Positions 15,097 through 64,000 of a stretch of DNA of 64,000 nt are shown piece by piece. A program made the translations under genes and the position numbers. Every line of letters starts with the position of its first letter. The first letter of the stretch is position 1. This DNA comes from a virus. The stretch lies in UHGV virus genome UHGV-0179803, one strand, 5' to 3'. Below the pieces are notes generated by a model. It saw only the letters and a program-made list of their open reading frames with translations, had not been told where the DNA came from and made no database searches.

Positions 15097-15106
15097 AGAA
15101 GGGGTG

Positions 15107-15475: not shown

Positions 15476-15476
15476 C

Positions 15477-17231: not shown

Positions 17232-17278
17232 TTAATTAGCCTCTCCTGCGGGAGAGGCTTTACTGTTTGGAGAACACA

Positions 17279-26079: not shown

Positions 26080-26155
26080 TGGCGGCCCCTACTGGACTTG
26101 AACCAGCAACCAAGCGATTATGAGTCACCCGCTCTACCTGTTGAGCTAAAGGGCC
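26080..26155 (-). tRNA. tRNA with anticodon CAU (Met elongator/initiator, or Ile2 if lysidine-modified)
   Basis: Hand-folded cloverleaf: acceptor GGCCCUU/AGGGGCC, D-stem GCUC/GAGC, anticodon loop CUCAUAA, T-arm GGUUCAAGUCC, encoded CCA end. Confidence 0.7.
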
Positions 26156-26156
26156 G

Positions 26157-26232
26157 TGGTGCTGATGGAGGGACTCGAACCCACAACCTTTTGATTACAA
26201 ATCAATTGCACTACCGTTTGTGCTACATCAGC
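26157..26232 (-). tRNA. tRNA-Thr (anticodon UGU), tentative
   Basis: Acceptor GCUGAUG/CAUCAGC, discriminator A, encoded CCA, anticodon loop UUUGUAA, T-loop UUCGAGU. One mismatch each in the anticodon and T stems, so identity needs confirmation. Confidence 0.55.
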
Positions 26233-26248
26233 AAACTGCTTATGATAG

Positions 26249-26323
26249 TGGTATTCGGAGCGGGAGTCGAACCCGCATCTACAGCTTAGGAGGCCGCTAT
26301 TCTATCCGTTGAACTATCCGAAC
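26249..26323 (-). tRNA. tRNA-Arg (anticodon CCU, reads AGG)
   Basis: Acceptor GUUCGGA/UCCGAAU, anticodon loop CUCCUAA, perfect T-arm GCGGG-UUCGACU-CCCGC, encoded CCA. Confidence 0.65.
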
Positions 26324-26409
26324 GTTGTTCTCTTGTCTATGTGGTGTATTTTATACTCAAATTGACGTCCCTGTCAACAAAATTCTTACCTGTCTGATCT
26401 TTGTTTTTA

Positions 26410-50262: not shown

Positions 50263-50328
50263 TAAATCAATAACTTACGTAACATACTGGAGGGGAATAC
50301 TTCCCCTCCCCAATCAGGAGAGTTAGCC

Positions 50329-50580
50329 ATGACAGAACGTGAAGTAATCCCAGTAGTATGTGTTTACGCAGCAGGTGAAGATGACGGTTATCCACACCTG
50401 GAAGGTTTATTTGTTGAAGGCCATGAGTACGTACTCGTCCGGTCAGAGGAAGAAGACGAAGAAGGGATCTACCTGGTTAAAGACGAAAGAGTACCGTTTG
50501 AATGGTCAGCAATAGAACAGGAAGATGGTGTGTGGACTGTCGAAGGTCTGGAGCTGATTGCAGAATTCGAAGAACTTTAA
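50329..50580 (+). CDS. Small highly acidic protein (83 aa)
   Basis: RBS AGGAG. About 30% Asp+Glu. Confidence 0.5.
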   Translation: MTEREVIPVVCVYAAGEDDGYPHLEGLFVEGHEYVLVRSEEEDEEGIYLVKDERVPFEWSAIEQEDGVWTVEGLELIAEFEEL

Positions 50581-50591
50581 GGGGCACCACA

Positions 50592-50813
50592 ATGGAAGAC
50601 TGTATCTTAGTAAAAGCTAAATTCGTCAATCCTAGAGCATTTTGGTTTACAGAAGGTGGTACTTACGTACTCCAGAAGTCTCCTCAAATAGCTGGCAATT
50701 TAATAGTCATTGACGACGATGGTGAATCATGGTTCACAACTCCACAGTTTGACGGTACGTGGGAAGTAGTGGGCACTTACACTCACGCTGTATTCGAGGA
50801 GATAGAGGAATGA
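50592..50813 (+). CDS. Hypothetical small protein (73 aa)
   Basis: ATG 50592 after AAGGGG. Confidence 0.45.
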   Translation: MEDCILVKAKFVNPRAFWFTEGGTYVLQKSPQIAGNLIVIDDDGESWFTTPQFDGTWEVVGTYTHAVFEEIEE

Positions 50814-51187
50814 AAGTTAAAGGCACAGAACACATAGAACGCGCTGTGGAGGTTGAACTGGATGCCCGTGAAGTGGGCGAACTCATCGACAACACAGCAG
50901 AAGAAGTGCTCCTGCATTCGATTCAGTGCCGTGCAATGCAACGTTTCTATGAACGGGTTGCAGGTTTTGAAGGCTCTTTTTGTGTGCGGCAGCGGCAGGG
51001 AGATAATGGTATACTTGTGTACCAACTGTGGAAAATTGATGCTGACTGGGACTACCACAATGATGTTGGCATCGATGAAAAAATAAAAGACTTGACAACA
51101 GAGGAGGTTGTGGAGTATATTTACCTCCGTGGTTGGGTAGAGAACGCAATATTCCAGTTAAGAATTCCAGTTGGAGAAGCCAAATGA
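50810..51187 (+). CDS. Hypothetical protein (125 aa)
   Basis: ATG overlaps the upstream stop (ATGA); RBS GAGGAGATAGAGG. Confidence 0.45.
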   Translation: MKVKGTEHIERAVEVELDAREVGELIDNTAEEVLLHSIQCRAMQRFYERVAGFEGSFCVRQRQGDNGILVYQLWKIDADWDYHNDVGIDEKIKDLTTEEVVEYIYLRGWVENAIFQLRIPVGEAK

Positions 51188-51441
51188 AAATTATTATCAA
51201 AGAAGACAAACTGATTTCTGATGAAACTTTCCGTGATTGCACTGCTGGTGCAGTCTATGAAGCGAAAATGTGTGAAAATCCGCTAATTGCACTCTGCGAA
51301 CAACTCGGTATCCACCTTGACGAAGAAGATATTCGTTACGCCGAAGAAGGTCTGCAATGTCTCCTCTTCCACGACGATAAAGGAGAGGCTGTGTATTGCA
51401 CTTTCAAAGACGTGGTTATTGTAAAACCTGAACATTATTGA
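51184..51441 (+). CDS. Hypothetical small protein (85 aa)
   Basis: ATG overlaps the upstream stop; RBS GGAG. Confidence 0.45.
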   Translation: MKIIIKEDKLISDETFRDCTAGAVYEAKMCENPLIALCEQLGIHLDEEDIRYAEEGLQCLLFHDDKGEAVYCTFKDVVIVKPEHY

Positions 51442-51450
51442 TATTAACTA

Positions 51451-51479
51451 TTGACAAGCGTGGCGGGGTTATGTATAAT
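51451..51479 (+). promoter_or_regulatory. Consensus sigma70 promoter (TTGACA, 17 bp spacer, TATAAT)
   Basis: Exact -35 TTGACA (51451-51456) and -10 TATAAT (51474-51479); RBS AAGAGGAG and ATG at 51508 downstream. Confidence 0.7.
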
Positions 51480-51507
51480 AGCCCCGTTAACAAAGAGGAG
51501 AGCCAGA

Positions 51508-51765
51508 ATGAAAGCACAACGTGTCAAAGCTAAAGTAAAACGTTTCTGCCTTGAAGAAGACTGCGCATTTTGTGATTGTGAACTAGGTGTCATCTATGAT
51601 GCTATCATCAATCTGGATGACGAAGATGATCCTCAACTGGGCAAAGAATGTGTCCTGATCGACGGGCATGGTGATGATGTTTACTGCACAACAGCAGAGC
51701 TGGAAATCGTAGAAGAAGGTGAAGTCTACGAAACTACTTACACAGAACTTTTCCGTAGCTTTTAA
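51508..51765 (+). CDS. Small acidic Cys-containing protein (85 aa)
   Basis: RBS AAGAGGAG. Motif CLEEDCAFCDC and an acidic C-terminal half. Confidence 0.5.
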   Translation: MKAQRVKAKVKRFCLEEDCAFCDCELGVIYDAIINLDDEDDPQLGKECVLIDGHGDDVYCTTAELEIVEEGEVYETTYTELFRSF

Positions 51766-51777
51766 AGGTGCCACAAG

Positions 51778-52176
51778 ATGAAAAAACTTTGGGATTTAGA
51801 CCTCTTCGATCTTACTGGGTTTGACGATTCATTCGGTGTTATCACAGTCCGTGATGGTGTGGCTGTGCTTAACTTGAATGGTCAGCAATTCCTGCTTGAA
51901 GATATGGCTTTGGTACGTGCAGATGACAATCCAAAAGCTGATCTGTTTGACCGTTTACAGCCGTTCAATTTCCGTAAAGGTACAAAAGCAGACCTTGATT
52001 GTAAGGTCAACGTGATGGTCACACAACAAGGTCCGTACCTGGTAATCTGCGCAGTAAAGAAAATGTGCAGCCTGAATGATCACGACCCACGGGCTAAAAA
52101 CGATGTTATCATCCTCAAAGTGGGTGATGCGATGGAAGATTTGATGAATGCAACTGGAGGTACTGGTGAGGACTGA
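51778..52176 (+). CDS. Hypothetical protein (132 aa)
   Basis: RBS AAAGGTG. Confidence 0.45.
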   Translation: MKKLWDLDLFDLTGFDDSFGVITVRDGVAVLNLNGQQFLLEDMALVRADDNPKADLFDRLQPFNFRKGTKADLDCKVNVMVTQQGPYLVICAVKKMCSLNDHDPRAKNDVIILKVGDAMEDLMNATGGTGED

Positions 52177-52468
52177 TTACGAAAATATGGATCCTGAAGA
52201 CTTCCTGAAGATCTTACGCCGCGTAATGAACTCACAAAACGAGATCACTTTGGAAGATGAGTTACTTGCCTCTTACCTCGAAGAGGCTGGCGATGAGCTT
52301 CCAATCTATGCGGGTCCGGGGGGCATGTATGCTTTGTGGCGCAAGATAGACATTCTTGAAACAGGGAAAGATATGATTATCTGGCACCTGATCAACAATG
52401 TTGGGGTCCCTGCATTTGACAAAGCGGTTGCAGAATTTTATCAACTTGACGAAGGCTACCCAGTATGA
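52166..52468 (+). CDS. Hypothetical protein (start uncertain: GTG 52166 or ATG 52187)
   Basis: ORF in operon; GTG is 5 nt after GGAGG. Confidence 0.35.
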   Translation: MRTDYENMDPEDFLKILRRVMNSQNEITLEDELLASYLEEAGDELPIYAGPGGMYALWRKIDILETGKDMIIWHLINNVGVPAFDKAVAEFYQLDEGYPV

Positions 52469-52725
52469 AACGCTTAACAGACCATGTATTCAAAGAAGGT
52501 GACAAAATCGTATTCGATGAGTTAGGTCCTGGCGCTGAAGCATGTGAAAACCTGACAGTAGGTAAAGAGTATGAAGTTGTAACTCCTACTTACAAACACA
52601 CACAGCTGTTCGGTATTGATGCTGAAATCTTACTACCAGGTATGTTTGAAATCCGTGATGATGCAGGTGATCTGATCGTAGGCGTACTTGGTGACGGCCT
52701 GTGGGGTGTTGCACGCCCAGTGTGA
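52465..52725 (+). CDS. Hypothetical small protein (86 aa)
   Basis: Overlapping stop/start. Confidence 0.45.
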   Translation: MKRLTDHVFKEGDKIVFDELGPGAEACENLTVGKEYEVVTPTYKHTQLFGIDAEILLPGMFEIRDDAGDLIVGVLGDGLWGVARPV

Positions 52726-52745
52726 TACTGTATAAACAATCAGTA

Positions 52746-52774
52746 TTGTTATTCCTGTAGGGAAGTGCTATAAT
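52746..52774 (+). promoter_or_regulatory. Sigma70-like promoter (TTGTTA, 17 bp spacer, TATAAT), with -10 inside an inverted repeat
   Basis: The TATAAT sits in the loop of GGGAAGTGC-TATAATGG-TACTTCCC. Confidence 0.45.
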
Positions 52775-52821
52775 GGTACTTCCCTTTAATACGTTGTTCA
52801 ACTAATCGGAGATTTCCTATA

Positions 52822-53217
52822 ATGGAACAAATGAACGATCAAGAAACGGTGGCAATGAACGTGCCAAACGAAGAACAACCTCAAGAAGCTGTATTCTTAG
52901 GGTTATCACGAGATCAGGTAGCTTTGCTGGCTGTTCTCTCTTCCTTCTTCTCCAACCTTACCGAAGTCATGAAGCAACAAGATGCTGATCGACTCTTCCA
53001 GGCACTGGTTGAAGAACCAAATTACAGACGCTTAGATTATGCTTTAGGTTGGGTAGCTCGCAACCGGGATGATATCCTTGCTTTGGTGGGAACCTGCAAC
53101 TTTGCACTGGGCCTACTGGCTAAAGTACAGGATACCTTAATCAAAGTCGGCTTCCAGGCTGGTGATCAGCAACAAGAAGCAGAGCAACCACAACAAACTG
53201 AAGGAGACAAACAATGA
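52822..53217 (+). CDS. Hypothetical protein (131 aa), Gln/Glu-rich termini
   Basis: ORF downstream of the promoter. Confidence 0.45.
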   Translation: MEQMNDQETVAMNVPNEEQPQEAVFLGLSRDQVALLAVLSSFFSNLTEVMKQQDADRLFQALVEEPNYRRLDYALGWVARNRDDILALVGTCNFALGLLAKVQDTLIKVGFQAGDQQQEAEQPQQTEGDKQ

Positions 53218-54467
53218 GTGTTGTACAAGAATTCAAAAACCCAATGAATCCCCGTGAAACTATTCTCATGGCTCACGGTATCATCAAACGGGTAAGTATT
53301 AAACCTATCAAAGGGGCTGATCCTGAAACAGGCATCAAAACTACTGTGTGGCAAGGTAAGAAAATAGAATCCTCACACACTATTGCTCTTCTAATCGCTG
53401 AAGTGGATGAGAACGACAAACTGCTCCAGGGCGGTGAAGAGATGTGGGTTAGCATGGGCGATAAACTCCTGAAACCTGGTCATCAGGATTCTGTTAGCGT
53501 TAAGATTAATGACAAATGGGAAACTGTAGTACCTGGCTGGATTGTTAACATCCCGCTTAAATCCAACGAGTACAACGGTAAAACCTATTACAAAGGATCT
53601 CTGGCTAAAATTGTTGTGTTAGGGGCTGGTGAAGTACCTGCAAGTGCTCCTAAAGCGCAGCAGAAAGGCCAACAACAGCCTAAACATGGTCAGGGTAAGC
53701 AACCACAAGGCAACCAACAAAAACCTGCTCAGAAAGGGGCTAATGACGTTTTACGCATTTATGGTACTATCACCGCCATTGATGGTAAATCCGTAACCGT
53801 TGATGATCAGAAGATTGGTGTTGGTGTGATGGTTGTCAACAACCCAAATCAGTTGAAAGAGCTGGTTGTAGGTGGTCGTGTTGCAGCTGTATGCGATACA
53901 GCGGGTAATGTCCTGAGTGGTTTTAAAGCATATCCACCACTGGAAAACAAAACACCTCGTAAGTCAACCTACGACCCTATTGGTGTGAGCACTGGTCATG
54001 CTCTTAATGCAATGCAAATTCTTCTGGATCGTGGATTGAATCCGGGGAGTACGACAGATTTAGGTATCGCAATGCAACTCCACACCTTGACAATTGACCT
54101 TAAAATGGAGTATGCTAAGGCAACAGGGAATGAAGAGGATGCTGTTGGGGCAACTGTAGGTAATGCTGTACTTAATGCATGTCGCCGTGTTAACATCGAC
54201 AACCTACAGAATCTTGATTGTCTGTTCAAAGATATCAAAGCTGAAGCCAATAACGTTCTGGTAAATCTGGCTGAACCTTTGTATCAGTGGATCAAAACTG
54301 GCAGCACAACCGCTGTTTCTAAACAGGGAACCAAACAGGAACCTGTGCCGGAACAGAAGCCAGAACCGCAACCGGAGCCTCAGCAGAATACTGTAGATGC
54401 TCCACCAGTAGAAGAGGAGGAACCTGATCCTACAGAGTGGGCCTTTGATGAAGACATACCCTTCTGA
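53214..54467 (+). CDS. ssb: Single-stranded DNA-binding protein (SSB-like) with long Gln/Pro-rich linker and acidic tip
   Basis: C-terminus ..EWAFDEDIPF matches the conserved SSB tail (..DDDIPF). Low-complexity linker QQKGQQQPKHGQGKQPQGNQQKP. The N-terminal region is compatible with an OB fold but was not verified. Confidence 0.6.
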   Translation: MSVVQEFKNPMNPRETILMAHGIIKRVSIKPIKGADPETGIKTTVWQGKKIESSHTIALLIAEVDENDKLLQGGEEMWVSMGDKLLKPGHQDSVSVKINDKWETVVPGWIVNIPLKSNEYNGKTYYKGSLAKIVVLGAGEVPASAPKAQQKGQQQPKHGQGKQPQGNQQKPAQKGANDVLRIYGTITAIDGKSVTVDDQKIGVGVMVVNNPNQLKELVVGGRVAAVCDTAGNVLSGFKAYPPLENKTPRKSTYDPIGVSTGHALNAMQILLDRGLNPGSTTDLGIAMQLHTLTIDLKMEYAKATGNEEDAVGATVGNAVLNACRRVNIDNLQNLDCLFKDIKAEANNVLVNLAEPLYQWIKTGSTTAVSKQGTKQEPVPEQKPEPQPEPQQNTVDAPPVEEEEPDPTEWAFDEDIPF

Positions 54468-54531
54468 TAAGTCATTGATTTATAGAGGATTTTAGCCATG
54501 TTCAACGAAGAAAACTGGGATGTGTAACGAT

Positions 54532-54558
54532 AAGGCCACCTTCGGGTGGCCTTTTTTA
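54532..54558 (+). terminator. Rho-independent terminator (AAGGCCACC-TTCG-GGTGGCCTT + T6)
   Basis: Perfect stem with UUCG loop and TTTTTT, right after ssb. Confidence 0.75.
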
Positions 54559-54587
54559 TTGACAAGAGAAAAATTTTAGGCTATAAT
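54559..54587 (+). promoter_or_regulatory. Consensus sigma70 promoter (TTGACA, 17 bp spacer, TATAAT)
   Basis: Exact consensus hexamers, directly abutting the upstream terminator. Confidence 0.7.
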
Positions 54588-54889
54588 GCGACCACTAAGA
54601 GAAAGATAAGGACTACCACTAGGATTAAGCAAGACATTATCAAAGCACGCAAACAGTTGACAGCGGAAGAAGCTCTTGATCGGGGTTATCGTTTTGCACA
54701 GACTTATAAAGCTATTCGTGAAGCACTGACTGATATGGTCAATGGGCAGCGGGAAGTGATGAAAAACAATATCAGCATTAAAATTTCTGAGTACACAATT
54801 TGCAGGTTAGAAAGTTTAGGCATCACTGTTCGTGATTTTGCTTTCAAAGTCTTGTTCCGTTTGGAACGTTTGTGAGAGGGAGGTATTCC

Positions 54890-55528
54890 ATGAAAAAGTT
54901 TATTGGCAAGGTAGTGGCTGTAGATGTGGACCTTACTTTTGTTGATTCTGGTCGTGCATGGTTAGACTGGTGTCAGAAAAGGACTGGTCTACCTATTAAC
55001 GTTTTTCTGCCGCCACAGAATCCACAGATGCGTTTCTATTATGACCTGACAAAATACTTCCCTGAATGCTACAAGAAAGATTTGAGGCTTTTCTGGAAGT
55101 TGGGTGGCATCTATGACAACCTTGAGCCGTTGCCTGGTGCTGTTGACACTATCAAGTGGTTGCATGATGAAGGAGCCATCATCTGGTTTTTAACTGGGTC
55201 TTTAAGCCACAAACAACATGTTAATAAATTCGATTTCATTAACAAGTGGTGTCCTTTCCTGGAGATAAAATGGGGAGGCCACGGAAACAGGAACGAAAAC
55301 GAACTGATCCGTGTGAAAGATATGTACGAGAAGGTAAATTTCGAGTGGGACGTGCTCATAGATGATCGCATAGAGGCATTTCCTCCTCGGAAAGATTCTC
55401 ACGCCGGAAGCACGATTCTGATGGATACTCCTTACGATCAGAGTTGTACGGATTGGACACGTGTTGACGCTGTTGTTAACGGTTGGGGTGATAAAATGAA
55501 AGAGCACCTTGAATGGGCTTTAGCTTGA
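54890..55528 (+). CDS. HAD-superfamily hydrolase, probable 5'(3')-deoxyribonucleotidase
   Basis: RBS GAGGGAGG. HAD motif I VAVDVDLTF (DxDxT) and motif IV VLIDDRIE. Confidence 0.55.
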   Translation: MKKFIGKVVAVDVDLTFVDSGRAWLDWCQKRTGLPINVFLPPQNPQMRFYYDLTKYFPECYKKDLRLFWKLGGIYDNLEPLPGAVDTIKWLHDEGAIIWFLTGSLSHKQHVNKFDFINKWCPFLEIKWGGHGNRNENELIRVKDMYEKVNFEWDVLIDDRIEAFPPRKDSHAGSTILMDTPYDQSCTDWTRVDAVVNGWGDKMKEHLEWALA

Positions 55529-55557
55529 TGCCTTCCCACAAAGCAGAGGTACACCAC

Positions 55558-55986
55558 ATGTGCAAATGTAAATCTTACAATAAGAAAGTGAAGGGCGCTA
55601 AACACCCAAATGTTATTCTGGAAGTTCCTAAACGTCTTCGTACAAAACGGTTAGATGGGACGGAACAACGCACTATTGCAGTTGATAAATGCATGGCTAA
55701 ACGGCTGGTTAGTTTGTGGGCAGCAGGTTTGCAGACTATGAACTGTTGCTGTGGTCACAACAAGTTTATGCCTACAATAATCATTCCAGAAGATGCTTGT
55801 CTGGAAGATTATTTCAAGATTCTTGATCGCTATGAGCAAACTTGTGTTGCACAGTGGCGTAAGTTCAAAGGTGAGTTTAGTCTGTTCTACTACATTAAGG
55901 TGGGTTCAGCTATACTTTGTATCAGTGAGCCTCCAAAAGTTCATGGCCCAGATTTTTATATAGCCACCAAAGTGTTCAATCAATAA
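55558..55986 (+). CDS. Cys-rich hypothetical protein (142 aa)
   Basis: ATG after AGAGGT. MCKCKSYNKK.. and NCCCGHNKF.. Cys clusters suggest metal binding. Confidence 0.45.
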   Translation: MCKCKSYNKKVKGAKHPNVILEVPKRLRTKRLDGTEQRTIAVDKCMAKRLVSLWAAGLQTMNCCCGHNKFMPTIIIPEDACLEDYFKILDRYEQTCVAQWRKFKGEFSLFYYIKVGSAILCISEPPKVHGPDFYIATKVFNQ

Positions 55987-56003
55987 GTTAAGATATTAAG
56001 TTC

Positions 56004-56261
56004 ATGAAAAGAAAACTAATTAAGCGCAATAAGGCATTTTTAAGTAAGTGTATTAAGGACGCTAAGGGCTGGCCTCTATACCTCTTCCTTTATGACAGGT
56101 ATTCTAAAATGTCGGTTATGGAAATGCGGTACTACAAGAAGCTCAGAAAGGAATCATATACGAAACAGGGCCGCATTAACGGACTTTACCTGATGTGGTA
56201 CGGTAAAGAACCGTCCAGAATCTGTGTTGGGTTAAAGGGGCGTATACGGAACAAAAATTAA
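56004..56261 (+). CDS. Hypothetical basic protein (85 aa)
   Basis: Lys/Arg-rich ORF. Confidence 0.45.
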   Translation: MKRKLIKRNKAFLSKCIKDAKGWPLYLFLYDRYSKMSVMEMRYYKKLRKESYTKQGRINGLYLMWYGKEPSRICVGLKGRIRNKN

Positions 56262-56280
56262 TATTTTGCAACTTTACCTC

Positions 56281-56309
56281 TTGACAACACCAACAAAAAA
56301 GAGTACATT
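56281..56309 (+). promoter_or_regulatory. Sigma70-like promoter (TTGACA, 17 bp spacer, TACATT) overlapping a terminator hairpin
   Basis: -35 exact. The hairpin GGCCAACA-AAGAT-TGTTGGCC + T-tract at 56313-56343 begins right after the -10. Confidence 0.5.
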
Positions 56310-56357
56310 AAAGGCCAACAAAGATTGTTGGCCTTTTTATTTTCGGAGAGACATATC

Positions 56358-56861
56358 ATGGCACTTAGTCTGAAACACGAATTTGGCGGTCTTGTTAACA
56401 GAGAACTTTTCGGTATTGACTGGTGTGTAGAGAAGTTTACTGGTTATCAAGACAAGGAAGAGGCTTACGTTACGCTGTCTGTACAAATTTACACTACAAG
56501 AATCACTATCCACCAGGGTGATGGAAATGTAACTCTTGACGAAATGTATGCCAAATACGATCTTATCCGTGATATGATCGAGCGCTGGATGTTTGCTCTG
56601 GATAACAACATCAAATGTAGTGATCGTATCTGGTTAGACAACTCTCACGCCAAAGGGCACATGCACGGGAATTGCACTTTCGAGGTCTGTGTTGACGGCG
56701 ACAGTAGTGATGACACTTTCACTTTAGCTGATTGTCAAAAACGGCTGTATTTTTCTCCTTACCAAATAGACCAAGTAAAATTACTGCATAAAGAACTTTG
56801 CAACCTTCTTAAAGCAATCAAGTATTGCAAAACTCATGACGTTTATGGGGGTGCATTATGA
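56358..56861 (+). CDS. Hypothetical protein (167 aa)
   Basis: ATG after GGAGAG. Confidence 0.5.
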   Translation: MALSLKHEFGGLVNRELFGIDWCVEKFTGYQDKEEAYVTLSVQIYTTRITIHQGDGNVTLDEMYAKYDLIRDMIERWMFALDNNIKCSDRIWLDNSHAKGHMHGNCTFEVCVDGDSSDDTFTLADCQKRLYFSPYQIDQVKLLHKELCNLLKAIKYCKTHDVYGGAL

Positions 56862-57313
56862 TTTTTGGTAGTGACGGTGGCAAATGGTACGGTGATGACT
56901 ACTACGGAATCAGCTACCACATAGAACTGAACAAAAAGCTGCCTTGTGTGTTTGAACTGTGCATTAAAAAGGCAGAACGTGTTGTTCGCCTGCACAATGA
57001 TCATTTTGCAGACTTCCTGATAAAAATCGAAAGACTGCAAGACTGTTTGTGTGATTTTTTACAAGCAGTAGATAACGGTGAGAAAAGTTACGGCAGGGTT
57101 GATCTCGACAGCAGTGATGAATTTTTCAAAATGCTGGCGCGTTGTTGCTGGCATGTCGGGATGGAAGGGGCTTGCTATCCAGAGTTTTGTATCTCTGATT
57201 GCTACCGCATCAATCATTTTACTTCTATCGAGTTTTTAAAAGACCTCGAAAACGAGTTAAAGGTTGTGTTAGACTACCTGCACAAACACGCAGCAGAGTA
57301 CGGAGATCGTTAA
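56858..57313 (+). CDS. Hypothetical protein (151 aa)
   Basis: Overlapping stop/start. Confidence 0.45.
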   Translation: MIFGSDGGKWYGDDYYGISYHIELNKKLPCVFELCIKKAERVVRLHNDHFADFLIKIERLQDCLCDFLQAVDNGEKSYGRVDLDSSDEFFKMLARCCWHVGMEGACYPEFCISDCYRINHFTSIEFLKDLENELKVVLDYLHKHAAEYGDR

Positions 57314-57334
57314 GCTAAGTAGAAGAGGGGCACT

Positions 57335-57796
57335 ATGATTATCGGTACTGTAAATGGGGATTTAATCTCTATCTTTAAAAGCGGGGCTGGTCACCTGATC
57401 CACGGTTGCAACTGCTTCCACACAATGGGTGCAGGCATAGCAAGGCAGATTGCCAAAGAGTTTCCTCAAGCGTTGGAGACTGATAGGATGACTGCTTACG
57501 GTGATCCAGACAAGTTGGGCACGCTCTCTTGTTGGGAGCATTTTGCCAAGAACAGGATTGTATACGGGATTAACATGTATACTCAATTCCGACCAGGGCC
57601 TAATGCTGATTACTCTTCAATCATGAATGGTTTTGAGCAAGTCAATGAGGTATTCGAAGGTATGTCGTTACCGTTCTACATCCCTAAGATTGGGTGCGGT
57701 ATAGGAGGTCTTATGTGGGAGCATGTAGAGAATATCATCAACCTCACGACTCCTGATATAAAAGTGATCGTAGTGGAATACTGCAAAAAAGGTTGA
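57335..57796 (+). CDS. Macro-domain protein (ADP-ribose binding or hydrolase-like)
   Basis: RBS GAAGAGGGG. Segments ..GAGHLIHGCNCFHTMGAGIARQIAKEF.. and ..IPKIGCGIGGLMWE.. follow the macro-domain layout (N-x-N/A-N followed by a Gly-rich loop, later a second Gly-rich loop). Confidence 0.55.
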   Translation: MIIGTVNGDLISIFKSGAGHLIHGCNCFHTMGAGIARQIAKEFPQALETDRMTAYGDPDKLGTLSCWEHFAKNRIVYGINMYTQFRPGPNADYSSIMNGFEQVNEVFEGMSLPFYIPKIGCGIGGLMWEHVENIINLTTPDIKVIVVEYCKKG

Positions 57797-57820
57797 CACC
57801 GGAAAATTATGGTGTATAAT
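57793..57820 (+). promoter_or_regulatory. Sigma70 promoter (TTGACA, 16 bp spacer, TATAAT)
   Basis: Exact hexamers; -35 overlaps the stop codon of the macro-domain gene. Confidence 0.6.
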
Positions 57821-57853
57821 GCAAACACATAAACCAACAGAGAGCGACATGTT

Positions 57854-58045
57854 ATGGTAATTTTTAATCGAGATGGTATTATTGTCCAACAGCACCCGTT
57901 CCTCGAATACTATCAGGTTGAGCAATGGAGCTACGGTGATTGCAGCCACACTTACGGTCAAGGCTGGGGGTATCATGTAGTTTTTGAATCAACTGACCTT
58001 AATGAAGTAAAACAGAAAGTTTTAGAACTCCTTAACAGCAAGTAA
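57854..58045 (+). CDS. Hypothetical small protein (63 aa)
   Basis: ORF after the promoter. Confidence 0.4.
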   Translation: MVIFNRDGIIVQQHPFLEYYQVEQWSYGDCSHTYGQGWGYHVVFESTDLNEVKQKVLELLNSK

Positions 58046-58071
58046 GTATTACCGCACCAGTTAAAAATTGG

Positions 58072-58100
58072 TTGACAACAGGTGTGGAATCTGGTACAGT
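58072..58100 (+). promoter_or_regulatory. Sigma70 promoter (TTGACA, 17 bp spacer, TACAGT)
   Basis: Exact -35 and a reasonable -10; AAGGAG RBS and ATG at 58133 downstream. Confidence 0.55.
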
Positions 58101-58132
58101 ACATCCTATACAAAAGAGAAGGAGCACACACT

Positions 58133-58360
58133 ATGTTGTATCGAGTTAAAGTTGCAGCGGATGTTCAGGGTCCGTGGGCTGAGTGGGCAGGCTGGTATTT
58201 ACTTGCTCCAATGGAGGGTTGTACTGATATTAAGTACAATGCTTGCCTCTACAACGAAGAGGAACTTGAAGAGGAACTCTTCATTGCAGATGGTATAGAG
58301 CACGGCCTGTTTGAAGTAGAGCCAGCTTTCGACTCTATACCGGGTTATTATTCTTATTGA
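58133..58360 (+). CDS. Hypothetical small acidic protein (75 aa)
   Basis: ATG after AAGGAG. Confidence 0.45.
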   Translation: MLYRVKVAADVQGPWAEWAGWYLLAPMEGCTDIKYNACLYNEEELEEELFIADGIEHGLFEVEPAFDSIPGYYSY

Positions 58361-58371
58361 GGGGACGAAAA

Positions 58372-58590
58372 ATGAGCATTCAAGAACATGCAGCACATAT
58401 GTGCCATATGATCACAACTCAGTACCCTCAGCAAATGGCATCAGACTTACGTCTGATCGAGATCCATAGCCGCTTTGCCAATATTGTAGAGGATCCTGTT
58501 TATTACTCTGGTGTACACGGTGAACGTGCATTTGATGCCGCTTGCAACGATTTTGTAGACTGGGAAGATGCACTTTGCTACCAGAGTTAA
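58372..58590 (+). CDS. Hypothetical small protein (72 aa)
   Basis: ATG after GAGGGG. Confidence 0.45.
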   Translation: MSIQEHAAHMCHMITTQYPQQMASDLRLIEIHSRFANIVEDPVYYSGVHGERAFDAACNDFVDWEDALCYQS

Positions 58591-58611
58591 GATGGTTGAG
58601 GAGGTTCTCCG

Positions 58612-58770
58612 ATGGAAGTTTTAGGTTTATCAGTAATGCTCTGTGTTTTTGTGGTATTTTGTATTAGCTTTATGCCACTATCAACAGCTAACAAGGCGTT
58701 CTTCATCACGCTGATTCTGCTATTTATTATCGGCGGCACTATGTATGAAGCTGGAATTATCTTTCACTAG
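58612..58770 (+). CDS. Small two-helix membrane protein (52 aa)
   Basis: Hand-translated: MEVLGLSVMLCVFVVFCISFMPLSTANKAFFITLILLFIIGGTMYEAGIIFH. RBS GAGGAGG. Confidence 0.4.
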   Translation: MEVLGLSVMLCVFVVFCISFMPLSTANKAFFITLILLFIIGGTMYEAGIIFH

Positions 58771-58781
58771 GAGGACGTACA

Positions 58782-58976
58782 ATGGGTGATTTACAGAAAA
58801 TCTTATTTACTGTCCTGCTCCTTGTCGGTATGTTTGCGGCAGTAGGCTTTGTGGCTATTAGTGCTGCACACTACGCAGACTTTCCTGCATGGGTACGTGC
58901 TTCGTATTCAGCTATTATGTTGGGGGGTTTGTGCGGTTTCTTAAAATATATAGGACGTGAGGTGCCTGAAAAATGA
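58782..58976 (+). CDS. Small membrane protein (64 aa)
   Basis: RBS AGGAGG. Two hydrophobic segments (ILFTVLLLVGMFAAVGFVAI and AIMLGGLCGFL). Confidence 0.45.
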   Translation: MGDLQKILFTVLLLVGMFAAVGFVAISAAHYADFPAWVRASYSAIMLGGLCGFLKYIGREVPEK

Positions 58977-59401
58977 TCTACCCTGTACCTAAACTAATTC
59001 CGGTATATGACAACGATTCTCGCTTTCAGGTAATGATTGCAGGTATCCTTGTCACTGGTAAAATCGATAGCTATGTGTTCAATGGTGAACGTTTTAAAGA
59101 ATACTCTATTGAATGGGATGGCTATGACTATAACGTCTACTTCGATGAAAACGGGGAGATGTACTTCGAAGAAGTAGAAATGTTGTTAGGTGTTGCAGGT
59201 ATCATCAAACCTAAGGATGTAGAATTTGCTGAAGGGGAATGCGATGACTGCGGTGACTATTGCGTCTGCGATATCCACTTACCTTCAGGGGAAACTATCT
59301 ATTTTGAAACGCATTTCGGTGAAACGAACTTCCCTAATGATTGGGAAGAGTTTTTCGAGATTGTGGAAAAAGAAAGGGAAGTGTTAAGAAGCCGTCGATA
59401 A
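58973..59401 (+). CDS. Hypothetical acidic protein (142 aa)
   Basis: Overlapping stop/start. Confidence 0.45.
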   Translation: MIYPVPKLIPVYDNDSRFQVMIAGILVTGKIDSYVFNGERFKEYSIEWDGYDYNVYFDENGEMYFEEVEMLLGVAGIIKPKDVEFAEGECDDCGDYCVCDIHLPSGETIYFETHFGETNFPNDWEEFFEIVEKEREVLRSRR

Positions 59402-59432
59402 ACCCAGTGTAATAATTTTCACTTATTTGCTA

Positions 59433-59461
59433 TTGACAACTGTGTGGGAGAGTGTTATACT
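59433..59461 (+). promoter_or_regulatory. Sigma70 promoter (TTGACA, 17 bp spacer, TATACT)
   Basis: Exact -35, near-consensus -10; RBS AAGGAGAG and ATG at 59491 downstream. Confidence 0.6.
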
Positions 59462-59490
59462 CTCCCCATCTTAAAAAGAAGGAGAGAGTT

Positions 59491-59685
59491 ATGGCAACAG
59501 TACATCTTATGGCTATCAAACGTCACAATACTTTGTATGGCCCGATTTATGAAACTGTTCTCGGCAATCTGTATATCATCAATGGGACTAGCTTCAGCAA
59601 AATTGACATTCACCACATCGAAGCGTTTCGTGTAGCAGAGCCAGAGTTAGGTTGCTGGTTCCTTCCTGTAGAATGCAATTTATGA
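59491..59685 (+). CDS. Hypothetical small protein (64 aa)
   Basis: ATG after AAGGAGAG. Confidence 0.45.
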   Translation: MATVHLMAIKRHNTLYGPIYETVLGNLYIINGTSFSKIDIHHIEAFRVAEPELGCWFLPVECNL

Positions 59686-59693
59686 GGTGCAGC

Positions 59694-59906
59694 ATGGCTA
59701 CTGCAACATGTGTATCTACGCAGCATGACAAATGGGAACTCTTCGAAGAGTATGAGGTCATCGGTGAGCCAAATGAATTTACTATACTGGTAAAAGCCTG
59801 TGATGGTGAAACATGGTGGTTCCATAAGAGCTGTGATTACCCTGGTTACCATTTTGCACGTACTTCAACTGGCAAATACATTTACTTACTGGTGAACGAG
59901 GACTGA
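59694..59906 (+). CDS. Hypothetical small protein (70 aa)
   Basis: ATG after GAGGTG. Confidence 0.4.
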   Translation: MATATCVSTQHDKWELFEEYEVIGEPNEFTILVKACDGETWWFHKSCDYPGYHFARTSTGKYIYLLVNED

Positions 59907-59907
59907 T

Positions 59908-60252
59908 ATGAAAAACCGTACACATCCGCTCTATCTTCGAGAACGTAATAGTATTGCTATGGTACTGTGCGATATCTTCAATGTTTCAGATCCGTACGAT
60001 ACTCACAATATGTGGGAGACAGCACGCATCCTGTTCCCAACACCAGTGATTGTAGCCATCTCAAAGAATGGCTTGGTGAAAAGAGCATGGGATAAGTTTG
60101 GGCAGTCTTACGTCTGGGCTGATCAACTGGGGTGCTGGTTTGAAGAAAGAAACCCTGTTAGCCTGAACAATGAACGTATGCGGGGAATTGATATCATCAC
60201 GGGCAAAAACATTCGCCTGAAAGGCGAGATTGTTTTCTGGCTTCCACAATAA
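59908..60252 (+). CDS. Hypothetical protein (114 aa)
   Basis: ORF in operon. Confidence 0.45.
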   Translation: MKNRTHPLYLRERNSIAMVLCDIFNVSDPYDTHNMWETARILFPTPVIVAISKNGLVKRAWDKFGQSYVWADQLGCWFEERNPVSLNNERMRGIDIITGKNIRLKGEIVFWLPQ

Positions 60253-60264
60253 CAGGAGAGATCA

Positions 60265-60606
60265 ATGAAGAATCAAACAGTAACAATGCAATGGGTAGAT
60301 GTTGATGGCGTGGAGAACATGCCAATCGGTGTATATTTCGTATGTATGCGGGACTGTAATGGTCTGCAACAATATGGTGTATGCGAAGTTGTTATGGCTG
60401 GGCAGGGCAAATATGCACATAAAGTTGGCGTGATCAGTGGTCAATTTTATTTTGAATTCCCACCAATCGTAGCATACATGGTTATCCCAGACTATGTGCC
60501 GATTCAGGACGGAAAACGCCGTTGCCCACACTGTGGTAGCACTGATATCGGTATGGCGCGGGACGATTTATTCTGCTTCTGCTGCCGCCGTTTCCTGGTG
60601 GAATAA
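60265..60606 (+). CDS. Hypothetical protein with C-terminal zinc-ribbon-like Cys cluster
   Basis: ..RRCPHCGSTDIGMARDDLFCFCCRRF.. (CxxC ... CxxC). Confidence 0.45.
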   Translation: MKNQTVTMQWVDVDGVENMPIGVYFVCMRDCNGLQQYGVCEVVMAGQGKYAHKVGVISGQFYFEFPPIVAYMVIPDYVPIQDGKRRCPHCGSTDIGMARDDLFCFCCRRFLVE

Positions 60607-60616
60607 GGAGTGTACT

Positions 60617-60811
60617 ATGTTCGAGCTTAAATCTTGCACAATCGTAGCACCAGGGGATCGTATCCGTATCCCAGGCCGTCACGAAATCCTACAGGTTAAA
60701 AGCATCGAGTCTGTAGGTAACCGTGTTCTCCTGTTCAAATTTGAAAATGGACACCAGGTGTACATGAGAATGAGAAGCAAAGTGTACATTGACAGGGGTG
60801 CTAAAGAATGA
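60617..60811 (+). CDS. Hypothetical small protein (64 aa)
   Basis: ATG after AAGGAG. Confidence 0.45.
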   Translation: MFELKSCTIVAPGDRIRIPGRHEILQVKSIESVGNRVLLFKFENGHQVYMRMRSKVYIDRGAKE

Positions 60812-61134
60812 ATGAAGTATGGGAAATCTGTGTAGACGTAGCAGGAATCACGCTTATAGGTGCTCTGGTTATTGCTCTGGCGCTGGTAGGATACAAGATG
60901 GCACTTCTGCCTTTCCTGGAAGCATTCAGCCTGTGTCATTGCTGGCGTAGAGCATATGGACCACAACCTGTAAAAGACTGGTTCACTTTGTACCGTATTG
61001 CACTATCTTACACGTTTGATCATTCACGCTTAAACTGCATTGAAAGCTATCATGCTGATGGTTGGTGGTGGGTAGGATTATTCAGATGGGAGGTGACAGA
61101 GGTAACTCCGAAACGAATGCTTAAGAAAAATTGA
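60808..61134 (+). CDS. Small membrane protein (108 aa)
   Basis: Hydrophobic N-terminus VAGITLIGALVIALALVGY. Confidence 0.45.
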   Translation: MNEVWEICVDVAGITLIGALVIALALVGYKMALLPFLEAFSLCHCWRRAYGPQPVKDWFTLYRIALSYTFDHSRLNCIESYHADGWWWVGLFRWEVTEVTPKRMLKKN

Positions 61135-61715
61135 TTTTAGAATTATAAAAGTTTTAGATGACAAGGGGAAATCTGTAATAGATTTTCCCTTATTTATCAG
61201 ATATTTGCAGATATTTGAAAATCATTAGAAACTTAGGTAATTAGGAGCGTACGAAAATGGATTTTTTAAAAGCATAAGCAATCATTTAGCAAATTAGCCA
61301 AATAGATTTTAGCCTATTGCTATTGTGTATGCATGTATTTGCATATGCCTTGCACATATCCCCACACACCTCTTCCCACATTCCCACACAGTTCTCGGTT
61401 GACCCGCCAATCTCCCCTCCACAACTCTCCCAGTAATTTCCTTAAGTACTCGATCTGTTTTTCAAAATCGAAATCGGATTCTGAAAATCTCGACAGCTTT
61501 TCTCCTCGGTTCTCGATAGGTTTTTTATTTTCGATTTTGGATTCTGGATCTCGGTCTGGTTCTGGCTAGGCCTGCGCCTGAGGAACGAAAGCACTTTTTT
61601 ATTTTTGAAAGTGGATTTTGAATTTCTATATAGAAAAAATTTACCCCCTACCATTTTTGGTAGATAGTCACGGTACGTAATTAGCCTGCTAACTAAATTT
61701 TAGATAGTTTCATGA

Positions 61716-61908
61716 GTGATTATCACCGTTACTATAAATTGCCGTAACTATAAATCACCGTGCGTTACTATTTTAATTTCACCATGCAACTATAAATCAC
61801 GGGCCGTTATTATTTATATAGAAAACTATTACTAACCGTGCGTTATTACCTCAATTTGCTTAGGTTACTATTAATCACCGTAAGTAACTATTTTTTAAAT
61901 GATAATCA
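61716..61908. repeat. AT-rich iteron block: ACTATAAAT and TCACCGT(G/A)(C/A)GTTACTATT repeats, flanked by TGATTATCA ... TGATAATCA
   Basis: ACTATAAAT at 61731, 61747, 61789. TCACCGT at 61723, 61755, 61875. AACCGTGCGTTA at 61835. Mutually reverse-complementary 9-mers at 61716-61724 and 61900-61908. Confidence 0.6.
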
Positions 61909-61926
61909 TTCTCAAAATATATTGCG

Positions 61927-62215
61927 TGCATCCCCGGTGATTGTCTCCCGGCCCCTGGTGCCCCGGCTTGATTATATAATAACAGATCCGGCCCCCATGT
62001 CAACAGCTTTTTTAGAAAAATATTAGTTACAACATCCTGGCGCCACCTGGCAGGGCCATCATGACCATGATCCGGTCCGGCGCTTGCGCCCTGGTCCATC
62101 CTCCGCACATTAGTTACAGCATTCCAACGACCGATCCCCGATAGTCTGCAACCTGGCGGGGCCGCCTGGTCCACTGGACCGCCTCCCCTGGTCCGGTGGG
62201 GAGTCCGGCTTGCAA
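61927..62215. repeat. GC-rich island with clustered CCTGG-containing hairpin-like repeats
   Basis: CCTGG occurs about 7 times in one orientation within about 290 bp. Repeated ATTAGTTACA(A/G)CAT at about 62022 and 62110. Near-palindromes such as GGTCCACTGGACC. GC content far above the window average. Confidence 0.55.
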
Positions 62216-62351
62216 TTCAAAATGTGATCTGTGTCAACCTTTCACCATGTAGCTATTGATCAGGTTACGGCCTAGTGTATTCTATAGGTGAAGGGAAACA
62301 AAGGGGAAACGGAAAGCAAAACACCAGGCCGCAAGGCAGGAGGAAAATAAA

Positions 62352-62528
62352 ATGAAAGGCATGGTTAACAACAACAACGTAAAAGAGAGGGAAATTATTG
62401 TTAATGGTCGTGAGATTGACAATAAACGCCGGAAAGCTATGCGTGATGCCCTGGTCAACTGGTTGGATTATGAAAAAATGATGGTAATGGCAGCGGGTGC
62501 CGCAGCTGGTGAATTTAACCACAGATAA
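62352..62528 (+). CDS. Hypothetical small protein (58 aa)
   Basis: Hand-translated: MKGMVNNNNVKEREIIVNGREIDNKRRKAMRDALVNWLDYEKMMVMAAGAAAGEFNHR. RBS AGGAGG 7 nt upstream. Confidence 0.4.
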   Translation: MKGMVNNNNVKEREIIVNGREIDNKRRKAMRDALVNWLDYEKMMVMAAGAAAGEFNHR

Positions 62529-62747
62529 CCACAGGGGGGCAAAGGTGTTAGCTTATAATCTTCCAGGCCGTCGCCGTACGGTTGCCGACCAGGTAACGGC
62601 AAAGGCAGACGTAACAATCAACAACGGGCAGGGCCTTTACAAGTTTAAACGGGGGAACAGCTATACGATCCAGTTTCTTAACCGTTGTGCTTTAACACCT
62701 GGTCAGATCAACCATTGGTTTAAAGCTAAAAAATTTTAAAAAATTAG

Positions 62748-62776
62748 TTGACACCAGAAAGAAATAAAGTATTATA
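62748..62776 (+). promoter_or_regulatory. Sigma70-like promoter (TTGACA, 16-17 bp spacer, TATTAT/ATTATA)
   Basis: Exact -35, AT-rich -10; RBS AAGGAG and ATG at 62825 downstream. Confidence 0.45.
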
Positions 62777-62824
62777 GATAGTGAAAGCAGTACACAAGGT
62801 TAACAAAATATAAGGAGTAACATC

Positions 62825-63226
62825 ATGAGCGCTTTTAACACTGATTTCGATTTCTCTGGTCTGGAAGAAGTTCGCGATCTTCGTAACTGCCGCCGCGAAA
62901 ACGGTTTTTATAAATCTCTGGACCTGGTGGCACTGGACCACAAAATGGACCTGGAAGAAGTAGCAACGATTCGTTTCTACCAGTCACCGCGCGGTAACAC
63001 TGTTTACTGTGTAGTATGGGTACATGAAGCAGGGCACGAATTTTATGCCACTGCTGGCGGGAAAGCTGGTGGCTATGGTTACGATAAAGAGGAGGCCGCA
63101 TTACGGGAAGCTATCGAGGCGATGGGTGTAAAAGCTGGCGATTATGCTCACCCTGAAAAATTTTTAATCCAGCTTGCTCGCTACTTCGGATATGAAAAAG
63201 CTAAAGTGATTGAAGCACACGCATAA
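62825..63226 (+). CDS. Hypothetical protein (133 aa)
   Basis: RBS AAGGAG; ORF after the promoter. Confidence 0.5.
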   Translation: MSAFNTDFDFSGLEEVRDLRNCRRENGFYKSLDLVALDHKMDLEEVATIRFYQSPRGNTVYCVVWVHEAGHEFYATAGGKAGGYGYDKEEAALREAIEAMGVKAGDYAHPEKFLIQLARYFGYEKAKVIEAHA

Positions 63227-63303
63227 GCTGCCTTTTAGATGGCCCCCTGGTGGGGCCATTGATAAAGGTAACTTGGGGCAACAATAACCGAGAGAAAGAA
63301 AAT

Positions 63304-63738
63304 ATGAAACGTTTACCACGCTGGATCCGCTTTATTAATAAACTTGCCGCAGATGAAAAAATCCAGGCTATGCATAAAGATAACCGCGAACGCCGTGCTG
63401 CCTTACGAGATTATCGCCGCATGTTGGCAAAGTTAGCCAATAAAAATGGCGTTCTTAAACCGTTCCGCAAAGTGATCCACCTGGTCGCTATGGGAGCGCC
63501 TAAGGTGGCAAACGTTCCAAACGTCCATAAGATTGATGACCGCGACGTTGTAAGAGATATTGATAAAGATTTTTCTCCGAAGGCCATCAATCAGCGGATC
63601 AACAGCTGCAAAAATAAGAAAGATCTTGATAATTTGTTAGATAGCCTCGACGCTTTAGGGTGTGATTATGATTTCTTAGATGACAAGATTAATAAAAAAT
63701 ACCGCGAATTGGCTGGTTATCGCGTCAACCGGATTTAA
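63304..63738 (+). CDS. Hypothetical basic protein (144 aa)
   Basis: ATG 63304 after GAGAGAAAG. Lys/Arg-rich. Confidence 0.45.
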   Translation: MKRLPRWIRFINKLAADEKIQAMHKDNRERRAALRDYRRMLAKLANKNGVLKPFRKVIHLVAMGAPKVANVPNVHKIDDRDVVRDIDKDFSPKAINQRINSCKNKKDLDNLLDSLDALGCDYDFLDDKINKKYRELAGYRVNRI

Positions 63739-64000
63739 CATATCAGAATAGTTGGCCCTGGTGGATCCGATCCGTGCACGGTCCAGGGTATGCCCGAAAA
63801 CCTCCCCCATTACGCCGCTACGCCTGTTTTGAAGGTGTGGCGGTGTAGTTGCACCTCTTTGCAAAACACCTCGCCATAATACTTATTTGATGCCTTATTT
63901 TCGATACGCTCAAATAATGACCAATCAATCGCCCCCACCATGATTTTTTTCTTGCAATCCCCCAATGTATGAATACAATAACAATTGAAGGCAGTATTAA

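Follow-up and report, generated by a model that had tools for sequence, protein, structure and literature searches.

We have analyzed a 64,000-nucleotide stretch of the virus genome UHGV-0179803, called here the window, with regard to a block of small genes at 50.3-63.3 kb in which sigma70-type promoters are combined with stem-loops. The block lies directly downstream of the gene of a family A DNA polymerase (928-aa open reading frame (ORF), 47476-50262), which showed ~74% identity to the polymerases of Vequintavirus, the rV5 group, in tblastn searches; at the DNA level, only short patches matched phages of the collection searched. Downstream of the polymerase gene, the block shows synteny with that of the small genes in phage Murica, and the shared genes include a Macro-domain gene (57335-57796) and a conserved gene pair of unknown function (52822-54467). 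Judged from these matches, the window belongs to an rV5-like myovirus related to the Vequintavirinae, of a lineage absent from the isolates of the searched collection. Genomes used for comparison were Murica (L001) and L004, both Vequintavirus; the IMG/VR contigs L002 and L003, close relatives with 88-90% identity to the window across 48-64 kb; and phage ECD7 (L005) of the RB49 group.

The block is hyperplastic and presumably early. It contains 30 small genes; eight of ten proteins tested were without a Pfam match, and PHROG matches were mostly to entries of unknown function. Even as compared to L002 and L003 the region is mosaic. An Rfam scan of the window returned only three tRNAs, with no match in the region of the promoter array.

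Sigma70-type promoters between the small genes

According to the initial annotation, at least eight promoters with an exact TTGACA -35 hexamer and a TATAAT-like -10 hexamer precede short operons between 51451 and 62776. All eight were located on the + strand with spacers of 16-17 nt (Table 1; promoters are named by their first position), and each heads a short operon, the units holding 4, 2, 4, 3, 1, 5, 6, and at least 2 small genes. The -35 hexamer is exact at seven of them, P52746 having TTGTTA. Three promoters match the consensus at 12 of 12 positions, P57793 in addition to the two that had been listed (P51451 and P54559); two match at 11 positions and three at 10. TATAAT-like is too generous a description for the -10 hexamers of P56281 (TACATT) and P58072 (TACAGT), which match at only four of six positions.

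Such sites are strongly enriched. The sequence TTGACA-N15-19-TATAAT was observed five times in the window against 0.08 expected, and on the + strand from 50263 to 64000 six sites with at least 11 of 12 matches were found against 0.16 expected, with a maximum of two in 200 dinucleotide shuffles. On a hand-curated gene map, each intergenic gap of more than 50 nt between 51442 and 62824 holds one of the eight promoters, co-oriented with the genes, except for a 1.2-kb non-coding region; the gaps holding promoters measure 57-96 nt. At seven of the eight sites, an upstream stop codon lies 0-32 nt ahead of the -35; at P54559, this distance is 92 nt for the upstream 417-aa gene and 31 nt for a micro-ORF. 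The 20 nt upstream of the -35 are at least 70% AT at five of the eight sites, reaching 95%, as compared to a window mean of 56%; at P54559, P57793, and P58072 this stretch is not AT-rich over its full length. A Shine-Dalgarno (SD) sequence and an ATG follow 20-50 nt past the -10 at most sites. The exception is the first gene after P54559, where the window has AGG (54621-54626) in place of the ATG start of L002 and L003 (ACTATGGTTAAA / ACTATGATTAAA vs ACTAGGATTAAG); this gene may start at the adjacent ATT, may be a pseudogene, or may reflect a sequencing error.

Both hexamers of all eight promoters are kept in L002 and L003, at P56281 despite indels upstream of the -35 and at P58072 beside a 40-nt indel. 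Furthermore, three promoters are conserved across genera. P51451 is present in both close relatives and in the Vequintavirus genomes L001 and L004; the hexamers of P57793 are invariant in all five genomes compared, two Vequintavirus included, and its spacer varies. Counterparts of P52746 read TTGTAA / TGcTAAAAT in Vequintavirus and TTGACA-17-TAACAT or TTGACA-17-TAAGAT upstream of the orthologous gene in Seunavirus and Mydovirus.

Some or all of these sites might, however, not be early promoters of the host RNA polymerase: they could be read later by a phage-modified polymerase, or the weak ones (P56281, P58072, P52746, and those within coding sequences) could be chance matches. The class with 10 of 12 matches is only ~5-fold enriched on the same + strand (10 observed vs 2.06 expected). 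In addition, the rV5 report, in its accessible part, describes a T4-late-like motif, TggTAaAAtA, and an anti-sigma candidate resembling Srd is encoded by rV5-like phages (PMC3606486). This motif resembles the loop region of the hairpin found at P52746. But each weak site stands alone in a gap otherwise devoid of promoters, and P56281 is directly followed by a terminator by which the genes beyond would otherwise be silenced. Moreover, the weak sites are kept in L002 and L003 beside indels, and the TGn extended -10 of P52746 is kept across genera. We consider it very unlikely that the sites are of this kind.

Promoters of this type are not restricted to the interval originally delimited: at 23-30 kb of the window they lie on the - strand, and at 33-51 kb within genes and on their coding strand. 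Sites with 11 of 12 matches at 33513, 34835, 36307, 39531, 42882, and 50078 (+) all lie on the coding strand within coding sequences (CDS) of the replication module, and + strand positions 1-50262 contain eight such sites against 0.6 expected; those within the replication-module CDS may be internal promoters. The near-consensus in-CDS sites at 50078 and 51092 and a leftward promoter at 62003-61976 had been missed by the initial annotation. P51092 is a 12/12 site (TATAAT) in L002 and is absent from Vequintavirus.

Stem-loops before, across, and after the -10

The two fusions of a promoter with a terminator, annotated at 54532-54587 and 56281-56343, were both confirmed. The hairpin at 54532-54553, with a 9-bp stem, a C(UUCG)G loop, and a T-tract, ends 5 nt ahead of the -35 of P54559 and is conserved in L002 and L003. 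In the stem at 56310, GGCCAAC/GTTGGCC of the window is replaced by GGCTAAC/GTTAGCC in L002 and L003, a compensatory double change (C>T / G>A). The U-tract of an intrinsic terminator is present at 54532-54559 and 56310-56343 and, read by eye, at 61164-61196, where a hairpin closes the + strand operon at 59491-61134, the last one ahead of the non-coding region. Just ahead of the terminator at 54532 lies a micro-ORF of nine codons (MFNEENWDV, 54499-54528) with its own SD sequence; the corresponding micro-ORF of Vequintavirus encodes MNEENWDV and is near-identical in its nucleotides though its surroundings are ~70% identical.

Transcription from P56281 had been proposed to start inside the 5' arm of its hairpin, with the consequence that read-through transcripts would be terminated and its own would not. 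A start 7-9 nt past the -10 (predicted 56316-56318) would leave a stem of at most 6 bp and allow this escape, whereas a start 5 nt past the -10 would leave an 8-bp stem together with the U-tract and prevent it.

Additionally, GC-rich inverted repeats that the initial annotation had not recorded bracket the -10 at P51451, P52746, P59433, and probably P51092. Folding was done with RNAfold in 36-nt segments centered on the -10 and compared to a background of 11,600 such segments from both strands. The hairpins reached -17.9 kcal/mol at P51451, -17.0 kcal/mol at P52746, and -15.9 kcal/mol at P59433, which places them in the lowest 0.1%, 0.2%, and 0.4% of the background, respectively. A strict perfect-stem finder (at most one G.U) misses the first two, as extension of the stem runs into extra wobble pairs. 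The P51451 stem stays paired in the window, L002, and L003 by way of T.G, C-G, or T-A, and Vequintavirus has GGGCC-N9-GGCCC. At the weaker P51092 hairpin, the L003 variant ATCTCC retains pairing via G.U; at P59433, L003 likewise pairs via G.U and L002 lengthens the stem. In a longer read-through fold at P59433 (59458-59490), the 3' arm ACTCTCC may pair instead with the downstream SD region GGAGAGAGT; a general anti-SD role of the 3' arm was dismissed, as such pairing was seen at this site only.

In total, two promoters of the eight adjoin canonical terminators, three carry hairpins without a U-tract, and three (P57793, P58072, and P62748) are without a convincing stem-loop, the spacer of P57793 showing only a 4-bp CACC/GGTG repeat. 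Behind the stems at 51489, 52785, and 59466 and behind their homologs, the next 8 nt include only 0-3 T; thus, the straddling hairpins are not canonical intrinsic terminators as known from E. coli. Start positions were placed 7 nt after the -10. Since the straddling stems end 5-15 nt past the -10, the promoter's own transcript would be without the hairpin. A stand-alone 9-bp hairpin after the DNA polymerase gene (50289-50309, GGAGGGGAA-tac-TTCCCCTCC) shares the Gn...Cn style of the promoter-associated stems and has neither a recognizable -35 nor a U-tract.

Hairpins of the P52746 type also occur upstream of the orthologous gene in other genera, reading AGAAGGGGATGCTA-AAA-TAGTGTCTCCTTCT in Vequintavirus and AAGGGGTA-ACA/AGA-TACCCCTT in Seunavirus and Mydovirus. 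The arms are entirely different among the three lineages, and the loop always consists of -10 bases 3-5. With the sequences aligned on the -10 without gaps, 92.9% of the cells were paired as compared to 43-55% with the partner slid; six of the 12 pairs had changed on both sides, and none of 500 shuffles reached the covariation score. The straddling hairpin is kept by compensatory change across three genus-level lineages. A common operator for a dimeric repressor was excluded, as the arms differ by site and lineage while pairing persists. Promoters of phage N4, which are read by its virion RNA polymerase, are devoid of -35/-10 hexamers and use a hairpin with a stem of 5-7 bp and a loop of 3 nt. 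They likewise tie a short hairpin to an early promoter, but the window has conserved full sigma70 hexamers and hairpins specific to the sense RNA; the conserved hexamers exclude promoters of this type here.

The position of the hairpins was examined in a metaplot of 627 promoter-like sites from the window and all fetched loci. Folds with dG ≤ -14 were found at 4.6% of the sites at offset 0 and 4.0% at -5, dropping to ~0.5% at 10-15 nt on either side. Minor humps near -50 and near +20 correspond to upstream terminators and to hairpins in 5'-untranslated regions (5'-UTRs), respectively. Many of the straddling examples come from T4-like contigs, typically with the form TTTACA-nn-GATAGGaCTATgtTATAATAGtCCTATC and compensatory variation among copies; others come from L005. 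Several promoters of Murica (13043-17600) are followed at about +10 to +30 by 5'-leader hairpins, e.g., GGCGGGAAnnTTCCCGCC and GGGGCAAGACGTTTGCCCC, which fit the +20 hump, would be part of the RNA started at these promoters, and are candidates for 5' stabilizers.

Furthermore, sense RNA folded better than antisense RNA at 35 of 45 distinct hairpin sites (binomial p = 2.5e-4), the sites having been chosen by either strand to avoid bias. This difference comes from the wobble pairs, which on the sense strand are G.T, and it favors a role at the RNA level over a DNA cruciform.

Table 1. Promoters, stem-loops, and terminators in the small-gene block of the window
Feature	Position	Strand	Description
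P51451	51451-51479	+	TTGACA-17-TATAAT, 12/12; upstream 20 nt 85% AT; upstream stop codon ends at 51441
Stem-loop at P51451	51461-51489	+	core GGGGTTAT (51465-51472) / ATAGCCCC (51478-51485), loop GTATA; no U-tract; predicted start G51486
P51092 (probable, internal)	51092-51128	+	within CDS 50810-51187; TTGACA-18-TATATT
Stem-loop at P51092	51103-51128	+	GGAGGT (51103-51108) / ACCTCC (51123-51128); weaker example
P52746	52746-52774	+	TTGTTA-17-TGcTATAAT, 10/12; weak -35, TGn extended -10
Stem-loop at P52746	52759-52785	+	12-bp stem; loop is -10 bases 3-5; tail TTTAATAC; predicted start ~52781, within 3' arm
Intrinsic terminator	54532-54559	+	AAGGCCACC-UUCG-GGUGGCCUU and T-tract; ends the 52822-54467 unit
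P54559	54559-54587	+	TTGACA-17-TATAAT, 12/12; abuts terminator; predicted start A54594
P56281	56281-56309	+	TTGACA-17-TACATT, 10/12
Intrinsic terminator	56310-56343	+	stem-loop 56310-56336, 12-bp stem, loop AGA, T-tract; begins right after the -10 of P56281
P57793	57793-57820	+	TTGACA-16-TATAAT, 12/12; -35 overlaps stop codon of the Macro-domain gene
P58072	58072-58100	+	TTGACA-17-TGgTACAGT, 10/12; extended -10
P59433	59433-59461	+	TTGACA-17-TGtTATACT, 11/12; extended -10; upstream 20 nt 80% AT
Stem-loop at P59433	59446-59466	+	GGGAGAGTG / TACTCTCCC; no U-tract; predicted start A59468
Terminator-like hairpin	61164-61196	+	GGGGAAATCT-gtaat-AGATTTTCCC and TTATTTAT; read by eye, unreported by the scan
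Leftward promoter	62003-61976	-	TTGACA-16-TGtTATTAT; conserved; points into the non-coding region
P62748	62748-62775	+	TTGACA-16-TATTAT, 11/12; upstream 20 nt 95% AT; no hairpin

Promoter/stem-loop cassettes and their likely action on read-through RNA

Gene content beside the promoters differs among close relatives. L002 has an extra ORF of ~124 aa right after its copy of P51451, with the SD-ATGAAAGCA segment repeated at the far junction. In L003, a DHFR-like ORF right after the copy of P57793 is followed by a remnant of the same promoter that has no -35 and a degraded -10. At 55521/55553, L002 and L003 carry 317 bp more than the window, and the insertion in L003 starts with a TTGTAA-16-TATAAT promoter. 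As these alignments indicate, the cassettes coincide with sites of gene-cassette gain and loss, as do the promoter-early stem-loops (PeSLs) of T4-like phages.

A PeSL combines a strong sigma70-like promoter, AT-rich upstream, with a stem-loop that is often polyG...polyC (Arbiol et al. 2010, PMC2839356). The stem-loop falls into five position classes, the commonest lying between the boxes or overlapping the -10; in reporters, the stem-loop of one PeSL cut lacZ expression about as rrnB T1 did, and one PeSL promoter gave ~13,000 Miller units (PMC2839356). PeSLs are known from RB49/phi1, PST/T4, and nt-1/KVP40, and recombination between them accounts for cassette indels (PMC2839356; Comeau et al. 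2014, PMC4122927). Insulated early units have already been proposed, and partly shown with reporters, for these T4-like cassettes (PMC2839356). As a positive control, our scan recovered textbook PeSLs in L005, a member of the RB49 group in which PeSLs were defined.

The elements of the window resemble PeSLs in the order of their parts (AT-rich stretch with stop codon, sigma70 promoter, which is TTGACA-N17-TATAAT in RB49/phi1, stem-loop, SD, ATG), in the position classes of the stem-loop including the one overlapping the -10 box, in their location among small genes of unknown function, and in the cassette indels and degraded half copies beside them in close relatives. The promoter remnant of L003 corresponds to the 'half' elements that Comeau et al. 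described (PMC4122927). Thus the promoter, the AT-rich stretch with a stop, the stem-loop (at five of eight promoters and at P51092), the SD and start codon, the hyperplastic setting, and the indels with half elements are all found here; the T4-like host genome is not, the window being rV5-like, which concerns where PeSLs have been described and not their structure. The elements differ from PeSLs in being fewer and less uniform in sequence and in that three of eight promoters are without a stem-loop; furthermore, promoter and terminator/attenuator activity and the formation of mini-circles belong to the PeSL description, whereas the elements of the window are predicted from sequence. Joint horizontal transfer of the Macro-domain gene and the adjacent promoter between RB49-like and rV5-like phages found no support, as the Macro gene of ECD7 is without a comparable flanking element. 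No paper naming both PeSLs and rV5 was found in the literature searched, and searches on Vequintavirus transcriptomics, on promoter/terminator overlap (Cappable-seq phage studies), and on inverted repeats in T4 early promoters returned nothing relevant.

Promoter arrays as such are familiar in this phage group. In the accessible parts of the respective reports, rV5 has 33 predicted promoters and 20 terminators (PMC3606486), and the Certrevirus phages CB7, CR3, CR8, and CR9 have sigma70 promoters concentrated in a region of short ORFs (PMC7344957). These parts describe the same phage group, a block of small ORFs after the replication genes, and the same promoter consensus as found here, and report no phage RNA polymerase for the group; they give promoters and terminators separately and make no mention of stem-loops across the -10 or of the conservation of such stem-loops. 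The lineage of the window differs by a DNA polymerase only ~74% identical to that of Vequintavirus. Rho-independent terminators beside phage early promoters are matched by 54532-54559 and 56310-56343 (GC-rich stem plus U-tract, one with C(UUCG)G), but not by the straddling hairpins, in which the U-tract is missing. Hence, sigma70 promoter arrays were already known for the group, and the composite of promoter and stem-loop was already known as the T4-like PeSL.

The coincidence of cassette indels with promoters in relatives could also mean that the inverted repeats act in DNA, either as cruciforms or non-template hairpins of supercoiling-sensitive promoters or as recombination targets or linkers that shuffle cassettes, with no role at transcript ends. 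An AT-rich center flanked by GC-rich arms is a geometry that favors cruciform extrusion. Arbiol et al. speculate that a recombination protein may bind the GGGG...CCCC stem (PMC2839356). However, the G.T wobbles of the sense strand would be A.C mismatches on the other strand, in line with the better sense fold at 35 of 45 sites; the arm sequences differ among sites, with no common protein-binding sequence; and the indel junctions lie in the -10/SD/ATG segment and not in the stems. We consider a purely DNA-level function very unlikely.

Each gap would thus hold a cassette in which AT-rich DNA surrounding the preceding stop codon is joined to a sigma70 -35/-10, often a GC-rich stem-loop, an SD, and a start codon, and the host RNA polymerase would read its promoter. 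The stem-loop is placed before the -35 (54532), straddling the -10 (51461, 52759, 59446, and probably 51103), or after the -10 (56310). With a predicted start ~7 nt past the -10, transcription would begin at or beyond most of the 3' arm or, at 56310, within the 5' arm; therefore, RNA from the cassette's own promoter could not form the hairpin, whereas in RNA coming from the upstream unit both arms would be present. By terminating or attenuating such incoming transcription, the hairpin would insulate every unit of one to six genes and spare the one it precedes. We consider it likely that 50.3-63.3 kb is a series of PeSL-like promoter/stem-loop cassettes of an rV5-like phage, with hairpins acting on read-through RNA only.

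Alternatively, the promoters may be real and the straddling hairpins without a U-tract may be non-terminators that stabilize or process read-through RNA, as barriers to 3'-exonucleases after endonucleolytic or Rho-dependent ends or by pausing the polymerase; in that case, compaction of gaps of 60-100 nt would explain why they overlap the -10. The stems without a U-tract and the shortness of the intergenic gaps agree with this proposal, specificity for the sense strand suits any role at the RNA level, and the GGGG...CCCC-style hairpin at 50289-50309 stands without a promoter. Yet three independent lineages have a hairpin centered on the -10 ahead of the same gene, the sharp peak of the metaplot at offset 0 is more specific than compaction alone predicts, and a PeSL stem-loop acted as a strong terminator in a reporter (PMC2839356). 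We regard a stabilizing or processing function as unlikely.

What the analysis shows is that the sites are more frequent than expected by chance, lie where promoters should lie, and are conserved, and that the hairpins persist through compensatory change and are specific to the sense strand. Enrichment, intergenic co-oriented placement, hexamer conservation, hairpin covariation, and the predicted starts support the units that the initial annotation had envisaged, transcribed early and strongly by the host RNA polymerase and insulated by hairpins. Within this proposal, the start positions, the early timing, the promoter strength, and termination by the straddling hairpins are what we infer: 'early' is put forward by analogy, and 'very strong' from the consensus match together with analogy. 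Several points weigh against it. Three promoters are without a convincing stem-loop, and two have weak -10 hexamers. The straddling hairpins are without a U-tract, and that they terminate is presumed from one reporter experiment on a PeSL of a different phage group. Finally, the covariation test comprises only three independent lineages, and the strand test includes related, non-independent sites.

A bolder, rather doubtful idea is that the straddling stem-loop is a dedicated, widely shared device of T4-like and rV5-like myoviruses, and not a by-product of compaction. Within ~30 bp it would combine a U-tract-independent stop or clearance signal for polymerase coming from upstream with the start signal for a new round, and compensatory evolution would have preserved its geometry in these two or more unrelated groups of myoviruses. 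Such a device might depend on a host or phage factor and might move among phage lineages as a portable promoter-plus-gene cassette.

Neighboring features and wider significance

The 1.2-kb non-coding region at 61135-62351 contains iteron-like direct repeats: 4-5 copies of ~31 nt (GTWACTATWAATCACCGTRCGTTACTATTTT) with 36-42 bp spacing at 61728-61894 and a second set at 61446-61620. Directly downstream of the leftward promoter lies a GC-rich element of ~35 nt (61927-61965), which is near-invariant across genera and shows a paired change in L003, CCGG/CCGG to CCAG/CTGG. We regard the region as a candidate origin of replication, with a transcript that would be a primer or non-coding; in the accessible part of its report, the rV5 genome is annotated with a 'non-coding' box (PMC3606486).

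Elsewhere in the window, a cluster of tRNA genes (Met-CAT, Thr-TGT, Arg-CCT; 26080-26377, - strand) is located directly downstream of a TTGACA-18-TAAAAT promoter (26377-26348). Opposite 49485-49909, in the region of the polymerase gene, L002 and L003 carry insertions of 312 bp (L002 1564-1876) and 978 bp (L003 885-1863); tblastn matches showed that polymerase genes of Vequintavirus are likewise interrupted by homing-endonuclease genes.

In most respects, the array is what a phage biologist would expect of an early region. Evidence that is new comprises the covariation of the arms in three lineages, the narrow peak of hairpins at the -10, and their bias toward the sense strand, and the proposal makes a testable prediction, namely that the hairpin acts on read-through RNA only. 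As compact natural insulators that combine a terminator and a strong promoter in ~60 nt, the cassettes could possibly be used in synthetic constructs. Composite cassettes of the PeSL type would thereby be extended beyond the T4-like phages, which suggests a general way in which large virulent coliphages may organize many independently dosed early genes and swap them without disturbing their neighbors.

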